A stretch of 60,481 bases of DNA, filler included. It is 6 parts of 6 records of this genome, joined end to end, with 100 filler letters (N's around TTAATTAATTAA, not from the genome) between each part and the next. Parts side by side here need not be neighbours in the genome. Positions count along the whole stretch, not along the records: positions 39,841 to 53,768 come from DRR723986_7091; 5 more parts are not named here. The stretch is one strand, 5' to 3'. The notes under the pieces were generated by a model. The model made no database searches and was not told where the DNA came from. It worked only from the letters and a program-made list of their open reading frames with translations. Shown piece by piece: positions 37,507-43,164 of the stretch (positions within the stretch are counted from its first letter, which is position 1; each line of letters starts with the position of its first letter). Both the position numbers and the translations under genes were made by a program.

Positions 37507-39351
37507 TTAATTATTGCGCGCCGCTTCCAGCCCACGAATCCACTCACTCAGGCGCGTATTCATCTCGTCAAAACTCATCCCCGCAGCGCTCGAAGCAATG
37601 ACTTCGTCGCCATGTACAAGCGTGATATTTGCTCCCAGGTCTACCTCACCTTCAAAAGCCGGAATCGAAGCTTCGCGCTCAAAGTCGCTCTCGGCCTTCC
37701 GCAGAACTTCTGCGAGCGGTGTGTTAACCAGATCAACTGTTGCATTCGCCGAAAACGCTGTGCCCGTCAGTTGTTTAACCAGGTCGGGGAAGGGGATGCT
37801 GTTGCCCGGACGCCAATAAGAACCCGTCATCTCCGGGCCAATTTTGGGGTTGTCCATAATATAACCATCGCGCTTACGGAAAAAATCACGCGTCTGGAAT
37901 ACCGCCATGCGTGCCAGAACGTAGCCGTGATAGTAGGCGCTGGCCTCGCCGGAAAGCAGGTGCGGCACACTCATCACCGGGCGCGGCGAGTCATTCAGGC
38001 ACAACATCTTGCGTTCTACGCGGCGGCAGATTTCCAGGACTTTCTCGGCCGTTAACTCATCGTCCGGTACTTCGTAGATTTCCTTTTCTGAATACACAAC
38101 CATTAACATCCGCCGCAGGTTAAACGCCAGCAGTTCGTGTTCGCTACGCAGAATTTCTTTAATCAGGTCCAGGGGCATGCGCTCGCCGTCGCGAGTGCGT
38201 GCATAACGCGAGAGCCAGTCGGCATCGCCGGTTAATGCATCCATGAACATTGATTGTGTTTCGGCCAGCGCAATCGAAAATGGCGTAAACTCCTGACTAA
38301 AACAGGGCGCCGGCATTTCGATATTACTGAAGTGTGCCGCGTGTCCACCTTCATGCAGAAAAGTCTCTATCGCGCGTTTACCGCTGCCAACCTGTCCCGG
38401 AACGGCATTGGCCGTAAAGTTGATTTTTGCAGGCAGAAACTCACCGTCACGCACGTACGCCGGGCGCGGACCATGCATGAAGCCATTGTCGTGTTTGCCG
38501 CTGCGCTCCACCAGGTCCAGCGTCAGGTCGGCACCGCGATAGTCAATTCCAAAGGCTGCAAAAGTTCGTCCCCATACACCAAATGATTCGCTGAAGGGCA
38601 TGTAGGGATCAACATTGGAGGTCAAATCGCCGCGTGTTAAGTAATCAAAATTCCATGCTTCGCGCGCGTGCTCACCATGTTTTTTGGCTACGCGGTCTAC
38701 CGAGGCGGCACATGCATCGCGCGTCTTGGCTTCCAGCTCATCCAGAATTTCGAACAGAACTTTTTTCGAAAAACCTTCATTTACCGTGACTTTGTAATCG
38801 TAATAATCTTCATAACCGAGCATACGCCCAAGTTTGTTGCGCATCTTAACAACTTCCAGAAAACCGGTATCCAGCACGTGTGGTTCAATTGATCGCTGAC
38901 CTTCCCATGCGGCTTTGCGTGTTTTTTCGTCCGGCGAAGTCGCGATTCTCAGCCCGAGTCCTACCGAAGAAGCCTCAGTAAACTCACCACTGTTCGGATC
39001 GGTGAATCCCAGGCGCATCGAGCGCCGCGCCGTTTCCAATTTGTCTTCGGCAGCAATGATATCGTTTTGCAGTTGGCGCGCATCTGCATCTTTAATGGCA
39101 TTGGCATTAAAGTAGCGCAGCCAGCCTTCCAGTCCGGTTCGTTCGTTTTGGCTCAGGTCTGTACGCTCTAATTCTTTTTGAATTGTCGGGATCTGGCCGG
39201 GATCGCTTATGTAATTTTTCATCGCAATTTCGCGCTCAGCATATTCTCCGTCCACCGCAGCGGCCAGGCCCATTTTATTGCGCCAGAAAGCTTCTTCTTT
39301 GGCGCGGTGCACTTCCATATAGCGGTCGTTCAGTTCATTCAGCAAACTCAT
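37507..39351 (-). CDS. M3 family metallopeptidase (oligoendopeptidase)
   Basis: FLHEGGHAAHF (HExxH), AETQSM and YYHGYVLA. GGAG SD before ATG 39351. Confidence 0.88.
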   Translation of the reverse strand: MSLLNELNDRYMEVHRAKEEAFWRNKMGLAAAVDGEYAEREIAMKNYISDPGQIPTIQKELERTDLSQNERTGLEGWLRYFNANAIKDADARQLQNDIIAAEDKLETARRSMRLGFTDPNSGEFTEASSVGLGLRIATSPDEKTRKAAWEGQRSIEPHVLDTGFLEVVKMRNKLGRMLGYEDYYDYKVTVNEGFSKKVLFEILDELEAKTRDACAASVDRVAKKHGEHAREAWNFDYLTRGDLTSNVDPYMPFSESFGVWGRTFAAFGIDYRGADLTLDLVERSGKHDNGFMHGPRPAYVRDGEFLPAKINFTANAVPGQVGSGKRAIETFLHEGGHAAHFSNIEMPAPCFSQEFTPFSIALAETQSMFMDALTGDADWLSRYARTRDGERMPLDLIKEILRSEHELLAFNLRRMLMVVYSEKEIYEVPDDELTAEKVLEICRRVERKMLCLNDSPRPVMSVPHLLSGEASAYYHGYVLARMAVFQTRDFFRKRDGYIMDNPKIGPEMTGSYWRPGNSIPFPDLVKQLTGTAFSANATVDLVNTPLAEVLRKAESDFEREASIPAFEGEVDLGANITLVHGDEVIASSAAGMSFDEMNTRLSEWIRGLEAARNN

Positions 39352-39740
39352 CAATCGTTCTCCGGAAAGGAATTCAGTTCGTCCATTTTTTAGCATTATA
39401 TGCGGCAAATATACCAAAATCGTAGCGGGCCCCAGCCCTGTCAGCACTTCCGGGACGGCTCACATCCTCAGTTTTTGCCTCGCCAGTTACAGATTGCAGC
39501 GCCCCTCATTTCATTTCGGCGCTTGCTTTTTGAGTCCCTTGTTAATCACCGAATGCGGCTACCCAATGCCTGGCGGCATTTATCAACGACGAATCTGCCT
39601 GAATTCTGTGAGTCTCAAAAACACAAAAGACTGAACGGCCGCGAGCCGCTACCGAACGTACAGTATTTCGGGATTAGCGGTCGCGCAGTTTGGATGGCGC
39701 GCGGCTCAGGTCTCAGAGACTTCCGTCTCAAGCCCCGTAG

Positions 39741-40141: not shown

Positions 40142-40429
40142 TTACTCGATGATCCCCATTACGTCTTTTTCCTGCATGATCAACAGGTCTTCACCGTCTA
40201 GTTTAACTTCGGTGCCGGACCATTTGCCGAACAAGATTTTGTCACCAACTTTAACGTCGAGCGCGGTTACAGTGCCGTCATCAGCTTTTGTACCGTTGCC
40301 AACTGCAAGAACTTCACCTTCTGAAGGTTTTTCCTGAGCAGTATCTGGCAGAATGATACCGCCAGCAGTTTTAGCTTCGCTTTCTAAACGCTTGACCAAT
40401 ACACGGTCGTGAAGCGGACGAAGAGCCAT
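40142..40429 (-). CDS. groS: Co-chaperonin GroES
   Basis: [14 protein letters not shown]...[21 protein letters not shown]. Confidence 0.98.
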
Positions 40430-40466
40430 GGTTTGTCTCCTAATTGATAAACCTGAATTAAAATTA

Positions 40467-40493
40467 TTAGCACTCACCCTAATGGAGTGCTAA
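40467..40493. promoter_or_regulatory. CIRCE element (HrcA operator)
   Basis: Perfect TTAGCACTC-N9-GAGTGCTAA upstream of groES. Confidence 0.97.
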
Positions 40494-40504
40494 CGCGTGA
40501 CTGT

Positions 40505-40533
40505 ATTTAGGCGAAGGGACACAATGGTTCAAG
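40505..40533 (-). promoter_or_regulatory. RpoH (sigma32)-type promoter of groESL
   Basis: Minus strand CTTGAA-N16-CCTAAAT, close to the alphaproteobacterial CTTG-N17/18-CCTATAT pattern, just upstream of CIRCE. Confidence 0.75.
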
Positions 40534-40595
40534 GGCTGAATCAAGAAAATTTATCAATTTTTCCGCTGTAACGACAAATATACCAAATTAAGGTA

Positions 40596-40621
40596 GCAAA
40601 CGGGTCAGCACGCCAACCCGT
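40596..40621 (-). terminator. Probable terminator downstream of the 40651-41205 gene
   Basis: Minus strand ACGGGTTGG-cgtg-CTGACCCGT followed by TTGCT (weak U tract). Confidence 0.5.
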
Positions 40622-40650
40622 CTACTCTTTCTAATATAAAAGCCACCTAA

Positions 40651-41205
40651 TTAAGCCGAGGCCATACGAGGATGGTGTTGGCGCAGGTGCTCGTGTGCAA
40701 TAAGCAATGAAAGGTGATCGCGGGCAGCATAGTTCATTGGCTTCGCCCAATCGCGGCCAATGGCCTGCCATAAAGCATTATTCGACCCAACACCAAGGGC
40801 GGTAACATAATCATCATCTACCAACATATATTGGTGTTTGTAGGGCAACAGAAAACCACCATGTTCAGCGCGGACCTTTAAAGCCTCATCGTATGAAGCA
40901 AACCATACGTTCCAAAATATATGACAGCGTTTAGGGTGCAAAAATGCAGAGAAACTGGCATCGGCCTTTTTCTCAAAACACTCAACCACCGCTCTCCATC
41001 CGGGAAAGCCGATCTCACGAGCAATAGTGCCCAGACAGTGCTTACGCTGAATATCTTCACCGAGTGCGACAGCAGGACTGTTCTTGTTCAGGCGTTGAAC
41101 CGCTGAACGCGAACCGGCTTTCGCTTGTTTATGCAACAAACGCGCTTCGTTTTTTAATGTGTCTAAAATTGGGGCAGTGAAACCACCCTCACCTACGAGT
41201 GACAT
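40651..41205 (-). CDS. Uncharacterised protein with N-terminal LKxxAxxL...IARExGFxxW helical motif
   Basis: Open 184-aa frame with GGAG SD 8 nt before ATG 41205. Motifs RKHCLGTIAREIGFPGW, NVWFASYDEA, FLLPYKHQY and IGRDWAKP. Confidence 0.8.
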   Translation of the reverse strand: MSLVGEGGFTAPILDTLKNEARLLHKQAKAGSRSAVQRLNKNSPAVALGEDIQRKHCLGTIAREIGFPGWRAVVECFEKKADASFSAFLHPKRCHIFWNVWFASYDEALKVRAEHGGFLLPYKHQYMLVDDDYVTALGVGSNNALWQAIGRDWAKPMNYAARDHLSLLIAHEHLRQHHPRMASA

Positions 41206-41340
41206 AACATCGTCTCCATCAATGGACATCACCGCTCTCTAGTGTCCTGAAGAACCATGCGCTGTGCGATAGGTCTTACTTATATGAAAATCAGGGTGCT
41301 ACGGCTTTTGGCGGGCGGGCGCACCTGAGCGCCTGACAGC
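41206..41340 (-). ncRNA. Candidate structured leader RNA (unassigned family)
   Basis: About 130 nt between a predicted promoter and the ATG, containing three stem-loops and an alternative pairing (see findings). Confidence 0.45.
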
Positions 41341-41342
41341 TT

Positions 41343-41370
41343 GATATACCGTTTAAGCCTGCTTCGTCAA
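41343..41370 (-). promoter_or_regulatory. Putative sigma70 promoter for the leader plus 40651-41205 gene
   Basis: Minus strand TTGACG-N16-TATATC (GGTATATC), resembling alphaproteobacterial housekeeping promoters. Confidence 0.55.
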
Positions 41371-41376
41371 TACACA

Positions 41377-43164
41377 TCATAGTTTGATAAACATACGTTC
41401 CTCGGCAGCAATCGCACCGCTTCGTCTTGCTTTTTCGTATAGTGATTTGGTGAAGTCGGCTTCTGCCGTTAACCCCAACTTTTCTTGAGTGCGCCACAAT
41501 CCATATAATGATGCCGAGCTGTTAGGGTGACGAATAAGACTTGCTTTAAAGGCATCTAATGCTTCGCTGTAGTTACCGTCCATATACAGCGCAGCACCAA
41601 GGCTTTGCTCCACCGCATAATACCAATGGGGTGGTTCAGTGTAAGGCAACTTGTTCTGCAGCTTAACATTCTGCCGCATCAAATTAGCGGCGGCTGAATA
41701 GTCTTGCTTTGACATCAAAATTTTTGCTGCAATGGTGTTGCTAGCCAGTTTCAAAACCATACCCGCAGGCCCACTACCGGGCTTGAAGGCCTCCAAATCC
41801 AGCAAGGCGTCAATTGCCTGCTTTTCAGCACTAGCGCGGCTATCGCCTGCCTCGGCAAAAACTTTACCGCGGGCATAATGCCACATTGCTTTCAAATACG
41901 GGGTGCTATCGCCGGGGTCGGGCAAGGCCTCAACATCATGCACGCTGGCAAACTGGCTATGGGCAAAATACGGCGCAGCCTTAATCGGCGCGATCCACTC
42001 TGCAACCTTCAAAACTTCCGCAGGAATAATCGAGTCCAGCTTTTGAGCATATTCAAGCGCAGTTTTGCCGTCTTCGGCCATTTGCGCAGACACCAGAATG
42101 AAGTGAATGTTATGCGGATAATAGCCATATCGATACAGCATCGAGCCCTTTGTTTCGCTGAGGTACAATTCATCTACCTCCGCAGCCTTGATATTAGTAT
42201 CAAGACTGTCCAAATACCGGCCTATTCGGTAATAGATGTGCCCCGGCATATGCACCAAATGGCCTGACCCGGGGGCCAACCCCGCCAATTTATCTGCATG
42301 CACAGCCGCTTCTTGCGCGCGGGTGCTGGCTTCATATAAATGTATAAACAAATGAATTGAGCCATAATGGTCGGGGTTGGTTTCCAGCACATTATTGATT
42401 GTATCAATCGCGACTTTAATGTGTGGGTGCGGCGAGGAATAATCCCGCTCCCAGTAATCCCACGGCGATGTATCCATAATCGCTTCGGCATAAAGCGTCG
42501 CAATATCTTGATCATCGGGGAAGGCGGCATGAACTGCAGCCATTGCATCTGCATAATTCTGGTCTTGCTGCGCCCTCGTAATGCTGGCATCTGCGCTATA
42601 GCGCTTCTCAGCCGCTTCAATCAGCGCCTGCTCCCGGGCATCTGCGCTGTCTTTCAGGGCGCTCGCTTTTTGGATAGCCGACAAAGCAAGGATTCCTGCT
42701 TCTTCACTCATTGGTGCATTAATATTAGGGCCAAGCGCAATGGCTTCCCCCCAGAAGCAAATGGCGCAGTTCGGGTCTAATTCCTGGGCTTTTTTAAAGG
42801 CGCGAATGGCTTCCCAGTGATTAAATGCATACAACAGCGCGAAACCCTGCCGAAAGTATGCGCCAGCCTGTTTGTTTTTGCTGGAAATCGGGAAATCCCG
42901 GTGGTCTAACCCGGTTAAGATCGGCACATCGGTTGAAGCTGTTTCTGATGCATTCACTGCACTGGACAACATCCGCGCAACATCAGGACGAAACAACAAA
43001 CCACGCTTTGAGCCCAGTGGTCCGCATAAATTCTGTGTAACTGTCGATGGATTAAAAGCATAACCTTCAACATCACTCTTTTGCTTCGGCGAAAAATCGG
43101 TCATGAAAATATTGCCACCAACCAATACGGCTGCGGCTATTGCTGGTGTAATAAGTGATTTCAT
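41377..43164 (-). CDS. Exported TPR-repeat protein with conserved His cluster
   Basis: N-terminal signal/TM; AFNHWEA..F, ALGPNIN, HYGSIHLFIH, HLVHMPGHIY, YYPHNIHF and YTEPP.W. Confidence 0.85.
   Translation of the reverse strand: MKSLITPAIAAAVLVGGNIFMTDFSPKQKSDVEGYAFNPSTVTQNLCGPLGSKRGLLFRPDVARMLSSAVNASETASTDVPILTGLDHRDFPISSKNKQAGAYFRQGFALLYAFNHWEAIRAFKKAQELDPNCAICFWGEAIALGPNINAPMSEEAGILALSAIQKASALKDSADAREQALIEAAEKRYSADASITRAQQDQNYADAMAAVHAAFPDDQDIATLYAEAIMDTSPWDYWERDYSSPHPHIKVAIDTINNVLETNPDHYGSIHLFIHLYEASTRAQEAAVHADKLAGLAPGSGHLVHMPGHIYYRIGRYLDSLDTNIKAAEVDELYLSETKGSMLYRYGYYPHNIHFILVSAQMAEDGKTALEYAQKLDSIIPAEVLKVAEWIAPIKAAPYFAHSQFASVHDVEALPDPGDSTPYLKAMWHYARGKVFAEAGDSRASAEKQAIDALLDLEAFKPGSGPAGMVLKLASNTIAAKILMSKQDYSAAANLMRQNVKLQNKLPYTEPPHWYYAVEQSLGAALYMDGNYSEALDAFKASLIRHPNSSASLYGLWRTQEKLGLTAEADFTKSLYEKARRSGAIAAEERMFIKL

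Follow-up and report, generated by a model that had tools for sequence, protein, structure and literature searches.

Organization of the locus

The DNA analyzed here is a stretch of 60,481 nucleotides (nt), joined from six parts of one genome and referred to as the window. On its minus strand, in the part taken from DRR723986_7091, an uncharacterized protein of 184 residues (P0001) is encoded behind a leader of about 135 nt, for which a reading of the sequence alone had proposed an unannotated structured RNA belonging to the gene. The leader is best read as belonging to a hitherto undescribed family of structured leaders at mRNA 5' ends, which would gate access to the Shine-Dalgarno (SD) sequence. 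The coordinates of all features are given in Table 1.

The leader is predicted to open with a helix, P1, whose loop pairs with a segment further downstream to form an H-type pseudoknot with a first loop of 1–2 nt and an A-rich third loop of about 19 nt (L3). A linker, which on inspection by eye differed in length and sequence among relatives, would separate this part from a hairpin, P5, flanked by the two strands of helix P4, in which an anti-SD sequence pairs with the SD region. The copy of P4 in the window is short and contains G-U pairs and a 3' bulge. L3 and the apical loop of P5 are complementary and would form a kissing helix. The blocks CCGCC-RAAAG and a CA preceding the 3' strand of the pseudoknot were invariant and unpaired. 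All elements named in the sequence-only reading were found on the minus strand at the positions given for them, among them GGCGC/GCGCC (41333-41318), UCAGGUGC/GCACCCUGA (41328-41291), GACC/GGUU (41275-41253) and GGACA-loop-UGUCC (41247-41224).

The leader is preceded by TTGACG and TATATC, which probably act as a promoter of the housekeeping type. The TTGAC was kept in at least 85% of 16 aligned upstream regions, and a TA-rich block was found at the position of TATATC in relatives. The site was absent from the list of a promoter scanner. Transcription would start some 6–10 nt downstream of TATATC, at P1 or a few bases before it. A look for RNA-seq data gave two metatranscriptome contig runs, each containing 0.05 of the sampled words.

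Table 1. Features of the leader, its gene and the surrounding region of the window.
Feature	Coordinates	Strand	Remarks
-35-like hexamer TTGACG	41365..41370	-	read from sequence
-10-like hexamer TATATC	41343..41348	-	16 nt spacer from TTGACG
Leader, about 135 nt	41337-41203	-	
P1 5' strand CAGGCGC	41329..41335	-	covariation
Pseudoknot 5' strand CAGGU	41323..41327	-	inside P1 loop; covariation
P1 3' strand GCGCCCG	41316..41322	-	covariation
Loop L3	41297..41315	-	CCGC 41314-41311 (kissing helix 5' strand) and AAAAG 41309-41305; columns invariant
Pseudoknot 3' strand CCCUG	41292..41296	-	covariation
Variable linker with stem P3	41254..41291	-	GACC 41275-41272 / GGUU 41256-41253, by eye
Anti-SD UCUUCA, P4 5' strand	41248..41253	-	covariation
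P5 hairpin	41224..41247	-	GGACA 41247-41243 / UGUCC 41228-41224; covariation
Invariant GCGG in P5 loop	41235-41232	-	kissing helix 3' strand
SD region UGGAGA, P4 3' strand	41213..41218	-	7 nt before ATG 41205
SD GGAG	41217-41214	-	7 nt before ATG
P0001 open reading frame, 184 residues	40651..41205	-	ATG at 41205; uncharacterized family
N-terminal helical domain, about residues 12–78 (...QRKHCLGTIAREIGFPGW...)	40972..41172	-	shared with ankyrin, DUF1835 and Glyoxalase_8 proteins
Terminator-like hairpin	40595..40626	-	weak U tail; consensus scan, 3' of P0001
Perfect inverted repeat TTAGCACTC-N9-GAGTGCTAA	40467-40493	-	38 nt upstream of groES start
groES	40142-40429	-	beyond terminator-like hairpin
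M3-family peptidase gene	37507-39447	-	downstream of groEL
TPR-repeat protein gene, 614 residues	41377-43221	-	Pfam TPR; signal-peptide-like N-terminus; upstream neighbour of leader
Membrane protein gene, 256 residues	43359-44129	+	no Pfam hit

Covariation in the leader

Homologous leaders were collected through relatives reached via two loci of metagenome-assembled genomes (Alphaproteobacteria and Sphingomonadales). A first MAFFT alignment of 24 leaders (A2) misplaced divergent rows and was replaced by a 17-row seed alignment (A3) and by the model-based alignments A4 and A6. The covariance model R1 was built from the 17 seed leaders with P1, P4 and P5 only. R1 gave exactly one match in each of 24 sources, the complete 60-kb window included, and the match was always at the leader and on the sense strand only, the model being strand-specific. 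Seven of the matched loci were not in the seed: L017, L020, L016 (E 5.8e-13), L013 (1.1e-10), L018 (4.3e-8), L025 (3.6e-7) and L024 (3.6e-4). L013 was left out of A6, since R1 misplaces this leader. L013 (673-856, minus strand) was found to contain an extra hairpin of about 34 nt, CUUGGC...GCCAAG, between the P1 3' strand and CCGCC, and R1 takes the insert for P1.

Among 24 leaders, 87.4% of the alignment cells formed a pair, compared to 39–48% when partners were slid, and 15 of 21 base pairs changed on both sides. With 54 leaders the corresponding values were 88.0%, 43–50% and 17 of 21. None of 500 shuffles reached the observed value in either set. The proposal that the gene has a structured cis-leader of its own is thus borne out by the matches of R1 and by covariation in both sets.

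The individual helices contributed to this result as follows. P1 was paired in 85–89% of the cells with changes on both sides in four of seven pairs, and was also predicted by RNAalifold on the MAFFT alignment A3, which was not fitted to any structure. The pseudoknot helix, which is not part of R1, was paired in 91.3% (24 leaders) and 95.9% (54 leaders) of the cells, all five pairs showing compensatory changes; variants read by eye include CAAGG/CCUUG, CAGGA/UCCUG, UGGG/CCCA and GCGGG/CCCGC. P5 was paired in about 92% of the cells, with three of four pairs changing on both sides (GGAU/AUCC, GGGC/GCCC, AGAC/GUCU and more). For P4, 77–80% of the cells were paired compared to about 45% with slid partners, and compensatory changes were found, but the alignment was fitted to P4 and its columns in A4 and A6 are shifted by one for the subgroup of the window, so that the percentages are underestimated in some rows and fitted in others. 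In L016 the position of P4 is occupied by UCCCC/GGGGA. No alternative ON structure was identified for the anti-SD:SD helix.

The kissing helix between L3 CCGC(C) and GCGG of the P5 loop was likewise predicted by RNAalifold on the unfitted alignment A3. Within the family, 35 of 51 sequences could form its fifth pair. Shuffles gave a mean of 25.0 (standard deviation 2.3), and none of 5000 reached 35; the pairs were C-G in 17 sequences, U-A in 13, A-U in two and G-U or U-G in three. In 16 leaders of the ankyrin/DUF1835 type described below, aligned by MAFFT with three rows misaligned in the loop, the kissing helix was paired in 93.8% of the cells compared to 29–46% with slid partners, and three of five pairs were compensatory. 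Covariation of the central positions was also seen by eye outside the P0001 family, with CCCAC/GUGGG in L166 and CUCGC/GCGAG in L171. Taken together, the H-type pseudoknot, P5, the anti-SD:SD helix P4 and the L3-P5 kissing helix are all structures for which covariation gives support.

The sequence-only reading had the two 5' helices compete with each other. This part did not hold: the pair that would extend the second helix at the expense of the first (columns 21-52) can form in 14 of 54 leaders, while 50 of 54 can form the pair of P1 (columns 8-21). Covariation is seen in the two helices alike, and they are predicted to coexist as an H-type pseudoknot. Two further candidates were rejected. 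A pairing of the anti-SD with a loop sequence GAGAG resembling an SD, taken from the minimum free energy fold, was not kept in other members, and neither was an upstream open reading frame starting at the AUG in GCAUGGUUCUUC in distant members.

Conservation of the leader with its gene

The protein family was found in 15 of 101 relatives of G001 and in nine of 401 genomes sampled from the class. In all 15 protein-positive relatives the leader was located at the gene, and the upstream regions were alignable over the full leader even where the proteins were only 31–41% identical. R1 was run over 151 relatives of G001 and matched 17 genomes, 15 of which were the protein-positive ones, with the match at the gene. 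Weak and doubtful partial matches were obtained in G050 (33 bits; L041:1501-1557) and G080 (21.6 bits; L042:1501-1557 as oriented, inside an apparent open reading frame). These comprised the 5' half of the leader only, no pseudoknot 3' strand was seen in them and no family gene was present; they may be decayed copies or chance matches.

A search of metagenomes was made with an RNA-only pattern consisting of the pseudoknot 5' strand, the P1 3' strand and L3. At least 120 stretches matched and 80 were examined. The pseudoknot 3' strand, which the pattern does not demand, was present in 36 of the 80, which we regard as true copies, some of them duplicating each other (e.g., L052/L061 and L059/L066). 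The other 44 resemble chance matches in GC-rich coding DNA. A readable downstream reading frame was found for 33 of the 36 true copies, and in 31 of these it matched the hidden Markov model (HMM) of the family (E ≤ 3.5e-5). The remaining two were a fragment of 21 residues and a SnoaL locus.

The SnoaL-like gene is the case in which the leader is found in front of an unrelated gene. A full copy of the leader (85 bits) at L043:1501-1625 on the minus strand, corresponding to G002:C52:7629-7753, precedes a gene for a 156-residue SnoaL-like protein of the polyketide-cyclase fold (PF07366, E 3.2e-29). The genome in question, G002, encodes a member of the P0001 family as well. An identical copy of this locus was present in the metagenomes (L091), and its neighbours are a TonB-dependent receptor gene, a UDG-family gene and a gene for an NYN-domain protein.

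A genome-wide search with the pattern YCCGCGGRAAGN{45,72}GCGGR was uninformative, because the reversed control pattern matched no less often; the pattern itself matched 98 of 401 genomes and re-found 12 known leaders only.

The P0001 protein and its N-terminal domain

A word-indexed search found 23 close relatives of P0001 with 36–76% identity, while exhaustive phmmer searches gave 430 cluster representatives at E ≤ 0.001 and 191 at E ≤ 1e-10. P0001 had no hit in Pfam or NCBIfam even at E ≤ 10, and therefore also fell below the whole-protein cut-off of PF20066 (Glyoxalase_8; 23.7 bits). In the ESM Atlas, only clusters of "hypothetical protein" were found, together with one lead (0.84) to Glyoxalase_8.

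An AlphaFold2 (AF2) model of P0001, made from a 68-row alignment, had a mean predicted local distance difference score (pLDDT) of 91.3 and a predicted template modelling score of 0.85. It consists of a helical bundle from about residue 12 to 78 followed by a small alpha/beta domain. No fold was matched for the complete protein: Foldseek returned nothing at E ≤ 0.001, the best match of an exhaustive VIA search had a Z of 4.0, and PDB profile searches gave E ≥ 0.63. The N-terminal domain modelled on its own (pLDDT 92.9) has four to five helices, and the domain is basic with a median isoelectric point of 9.7. The best VIA match of the domain was a DUF1244 protein, with a root-mean-square deviation of 3.5 Å over 51 aligned residues. 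A helix-extended-loop-helix or SAP-like fold, which we considered as a lead, was not confirmed by structure and profile searches.

No Pfam model covers the N-terminal domain on its own. The first 56 or so positions of PF20066 do, however, correspond to it: residues 11-55 of the L188 protein matched positions 7-56 of this profile, and weak hits to it were found in three of 68 family members (best E 0.0011). P0001 itself differs from Glyoxalase_8 proteins by its lack of a Pfam hit and by its C-terminal alpha/beta domain, which is unrelated and has no fold match.

Leaders that accompany the N-terminal domain into other gene families

When the family profile was compared to 401 genomes sampled from the phylum, 29 were matched. 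Besides full-length homologues, larger reading frames were found whose N-termini matched profile positions of about 1–75 alone. By Pfam, ankyrin repeats were present in all five of the proteins of about 515–546 residues that were scanned, DUF1835 in three proteins, and Glyoxalase_8 in two (E about 1e-50) plus one weak match (profile positions 7-56 only). For the remaining 11 loci, the grouping is by length and sequence likeness only. The domain that heads these ankyrin-repeat, DUF1835 and Glyoxalase_8 proteins (L172-L193) is unannotated and has the signature L-K-x-A-K...A-R-E-x-G-F-x-S-W. The likeness of the P0001 N-terminus to Glyoxalase_8 and ankyrin proteins, which the sequence-only reading had suggested, therefore agrees with both the profile and the Pfam scans.

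The leaders of these genes were found to have the same arrangement of elements. A 5' hairpin has a loop that can pair downstream, an L3 block of the form YCCGC-GGRAAG follows, the loop of an SD-proximal hairpin is complementary to L3, and an anti-SD:SD helix can form, e.g., CCUUUGUGCA/UGCACGGAGG. The core differs by subfamily, with RAAAG in one and GGGAAGGG in another, and the kissing helix covaries; CCCGC/GCGGG, UCCGC/GCGGA, CCUGC/GCAGG, UUCGC/GCGAA, CUCGC/GCGAG and CUCAC/GUGAG were all seen by eye among ankyrin, DUF1835 and Glyoxalase_8 leaders.

We described the kissing interaction by a simple descriptor, in which any 5-mer is followed by GG(G)[AC]A[AG]G and its exact reverse complement occurs 35–135 nt later. 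Of 22 loci, 15 satisfied it within a leader region of 140 nt, while the remaining DNA of about 138 kb contained 30 hits. The position of the elements was constant: counted from the start codon, L3 was found between -92 and -127 and the loop between -30 and -54. A second covariance model, R2, was built from 16 leaders of the ankyrin/DUF1835/Glyoxalase_8 type and searched against 150 relatives of G704. Of its 11 hits, spread over 10 genomes, nine were outside the seed, and all 11 ended at the start codon of a reading frame with an N-domain HMM match (E 1e-27 to 3e-6). The second suggestion of the sequence-only reading, that similar leaders stand before Glyoxalase_8 and ankyrin genes, is accordingly upheld by both the descriptor and R2.

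The RNA thus occurs specifically with the gene or the domain, as expected of an autogenously acting leader, with the SnoaL gene as the exception. The N-terminal domain is the only feature common to all gene families with leaders of this architecture.

In G232 two N-domain genes were found, and a leader of a separate type precedes each of them (L180 and L193). In the distant homologue at L167:1288-1500, on the plus strand, about 200 nt separate the aptamer from the probable true start (MKQATDELK...) downstream of it, with a much longer linker, and the stop-to-stop frame crosses the leader.

Neighbouring genes

The gene for P0001 is followed by a terminator-like hairpin, but the two such sites that were found compare to 1.9 expected from shuffled sequence. 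Beyond it lies groES. The perfect inverted repeat upstream of groES is a CIRCE element, and CTTGAA...CCTAAAT at about 40535-40505, just before the repeat, we take to be a promoter-like pair of the heat-shock type. groES was located directly downstream of the family gene in the window and in nine of the 15 relatives' loci, in six of which the TPR gene was located upstream; the closest relatives, too, have kept the TPR gene in this place. In distant members the neighbours of the family gene were unrelated from locus to locus. A run of N at about 39790 masks part of groEL on the minus strand, and X stretches occur in reading frames on both strands.

Comparison with known RNAs

No family of Rfam 15 matched the leader, in agreement with the earlier proposal of an undescribed RNA. 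With all 4227 models and E ≤ 10, region 40300-41700 of the window gave a single row, malK-II, at 17.7 bits compared to a gathering score of 52.9; this was a chance-level hit to the other strand that did not fall in the leader. There were no matches at E ≤ 0.1 in 20 loci of the wider leader superfamily. The motif was not described in the literature searched, including the main texts of PMC11109978, PMC8632094, bioRxiv 10.64898/2026.10.21.760802 and PMC5737381, the supplements of which have full motif lists that could contain it.

Several well-known RNAs resemble the leader in part. It shares with the leader of Escherichia coli rpsO, which is bound by S15, a pseudoknot at the mRNA 5' end, an overlap with the ribosome-binding site or putative control over it, and an occurrence essentially only before the gene family of the proposed effector. 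It differs in that the protein is non-ribosomal and has no known RNA-binding fold, and that the RNA tracks one N-terminal domain over at least four architectures. With the ZTP (pfl) riboswitch it shares two subdomains, a linker of variable length, docking by a long-range pseudoknot and what would be an expression platform tied to the 3' subdomain. Helices and sequence are however unrelated, and the association here is with a protein domain and not with a metabolic pathway. SAM-II, SAM-V and preQ1-II are like the leader in having an H-type pseudoknot whose third loop is A-rich, and they control translation via access to the SD, as the leader is proposed to do. SAM-II is common in Alphaproteobacteria. 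In the present leader, unlike these three, the SD lies outside the pseudoknot in a separate helix joined by a loop-loop interaction, and no Rfam match was found.

Proposed mechanism and alternatives

The following mechanism would be consistent with these observations. The transcript would begin at the H-type pseudoknot, formed by P1 and the helix between the P1 loop and its downstream partner, or a few bases before it. As covariation indicates, CCGCC-RAAAG of L3 pairs with GCGG in the apical loop of P5, and P5 sits on the anti-SD:SD helix P4. As the double pseudoknot incorporates the SD through P4, the folded state would keep the ribosome-binding site closed and the leader would gate the initiation of translation. 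An effector would shift the balance between the folded and the open state, and this effector would most likely be the basic N-terminal domain of about 70 residues of the encoded protein, possibly acting on its own mRNA.

We favour autogenous control by the N-terminal domain, albeit at somewhat less than even confidence, because the controlled genes share this domain only and because searches starting from the RNA led to the domain and those starting from the domain led to the RNA. A bolder version, which we put forward more tentatively, is that the ARExGFxxW domain is a new RNA-binding module that recognizes the double-pseudoknot leader on the mRNA encoding it, perhaps while emerging from the ribosome. 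Leader and domain would then make up a portable autoregulatory cassette that has been fused to at least four effector domains, i.e., the C-terminal domain of the P0001 family, ankyrin repeats, DUF1835 and glyoxalase-like domains, and the leader would sometimes have been copied alone, as before the SnoaL gene, for the same control.

A number of observations weigh against this interpretation. The leader alone had a minimum free energy of -37 kcal/mol compared to -39.3 ± 3.3 kcal/mol for dinucleotide shuffles (z = +0.70), and the copy in the window has an A-C mismatch in P1, four good pseudoknot pairs and four kissing pairs. The SnoaL-like gene stands behind an 85-bit leader and lacks the N-terminal domain, so that the leader can work with no such domain in cis, although G002 also encodes a family member. 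No clear leader was found for the homologues L168, L169, L184, L188, L190 and L191. The N-terminal domain gave no recognizable match to an RNA-binding fold or family: its best Z in VIA was 4.1, Foldseek found nothing at E ≤ 0.001, and PDB profile matches stayed at E ≥ 0.13. Finally, leader and domain are adjacent, and joint inheritance of the two as a single 5' module would require no interaction between them.

Among the alternatives, an orphan riboswitch fares best, and we regard it as somewhat unlikely yet serious. The double pseudoknot would then serve as aptamer, and the small molecule or ion bound by it would stabilize the docking of L3 on P5 and with it the SD-sequestering helix, making an OFF switch, and the N-domain and SnoaL proteins would share a link to the ligand. 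A conserved structure with covarying helices in a 5' untranslated region, as expected of an aptamer, is indeed what was found, and the fold is compact and begins at the inferred start of transcription. Its unpaired blocks are invariant, the SD is part of the structure, the two subdomains with variable linker and long-range docking are like those of known riboswitches, and a full copy precedes the unrelated, enzyme-like SnoaL gene. On the other hand, the controlled genes have a domain of about 70 residues in common and no pathway, their neighbours are unrelated between loci, and no candidate ligand emerges from gene contexts this heterogeneous. Riboswitch cores are normally invariant within a class, whereas the core sequences found here vary by subfamily.

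It is less probable that the leader responds to a different trans-acting protein or a small RNA, or is a constitutive element for stability, folding or translation rate that is co-inherited with the N-terminal module. Domain shuffling would make a contiguous leader and N-domain co-segregate without interaction, and fold and profile searches found no RNA-binding signature in the domain. However, compensatory changes have preserved the SD-sequestering helix even between distant subfamilies, a pattern that favours regulated access over passive linkage, and the leader has been copied to the SnoaL gene without the domain.

An RNA thermometer, in which a weak anti-SD:SD helix melts upon heat shock, appears improbable, even though it would fit a gene that adjoins groES, upstream of groES-groEL, in the window and most of the relatives' loci, and a P4 that is short, has G-U pairs and carries a bulge. 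The linkage to groES is confined to one lineage; most of the distant members and all ankyrin, DUF1835 and Glyoxalase_8 members examined are not located beside it, and groES has its own CIRCE operator and promoter. A core of a pseudoknot and a kissing helix far from the SD is also far more elaborate than known thermometers, and no thermometer model of Rfam matched region 40300-41700 at E ≤ 10. That there is no functional RNA at all and the conservation reflects promoter or other DNA-level signals would agree with a single-sequence fold no better than shuffles, but is very hard to reconcile with four helices showing compensatory changes and a model that matches the sense strand only, at the leader, and a DNA site would not keep pairing through G-U pairs.

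If confirmed, the leader would represent a widespread class of structured regulatory RNA, given the 430 protein cluster representatives and the related leaders that ankyrin, DUF1835 and Glyoxalase_8 genes of Pseudomonadota carry. Its build would be unusual, as an H-type pseudoknot is docked by a loop-loop helix on an SD-masking hairpin and the distribution tracks a protein domain instead of a pathway. Autogenous control and an orphan riboswitch are directly testable here, and the locus would accordingly provide either a new modular RNA-protein autoregulatory cassette or a new orphan riboswitch. It would also offer the first clue to what a common but unannotated N-terminal domain of bacteria does, and to the role of several uncharacterized protein families.

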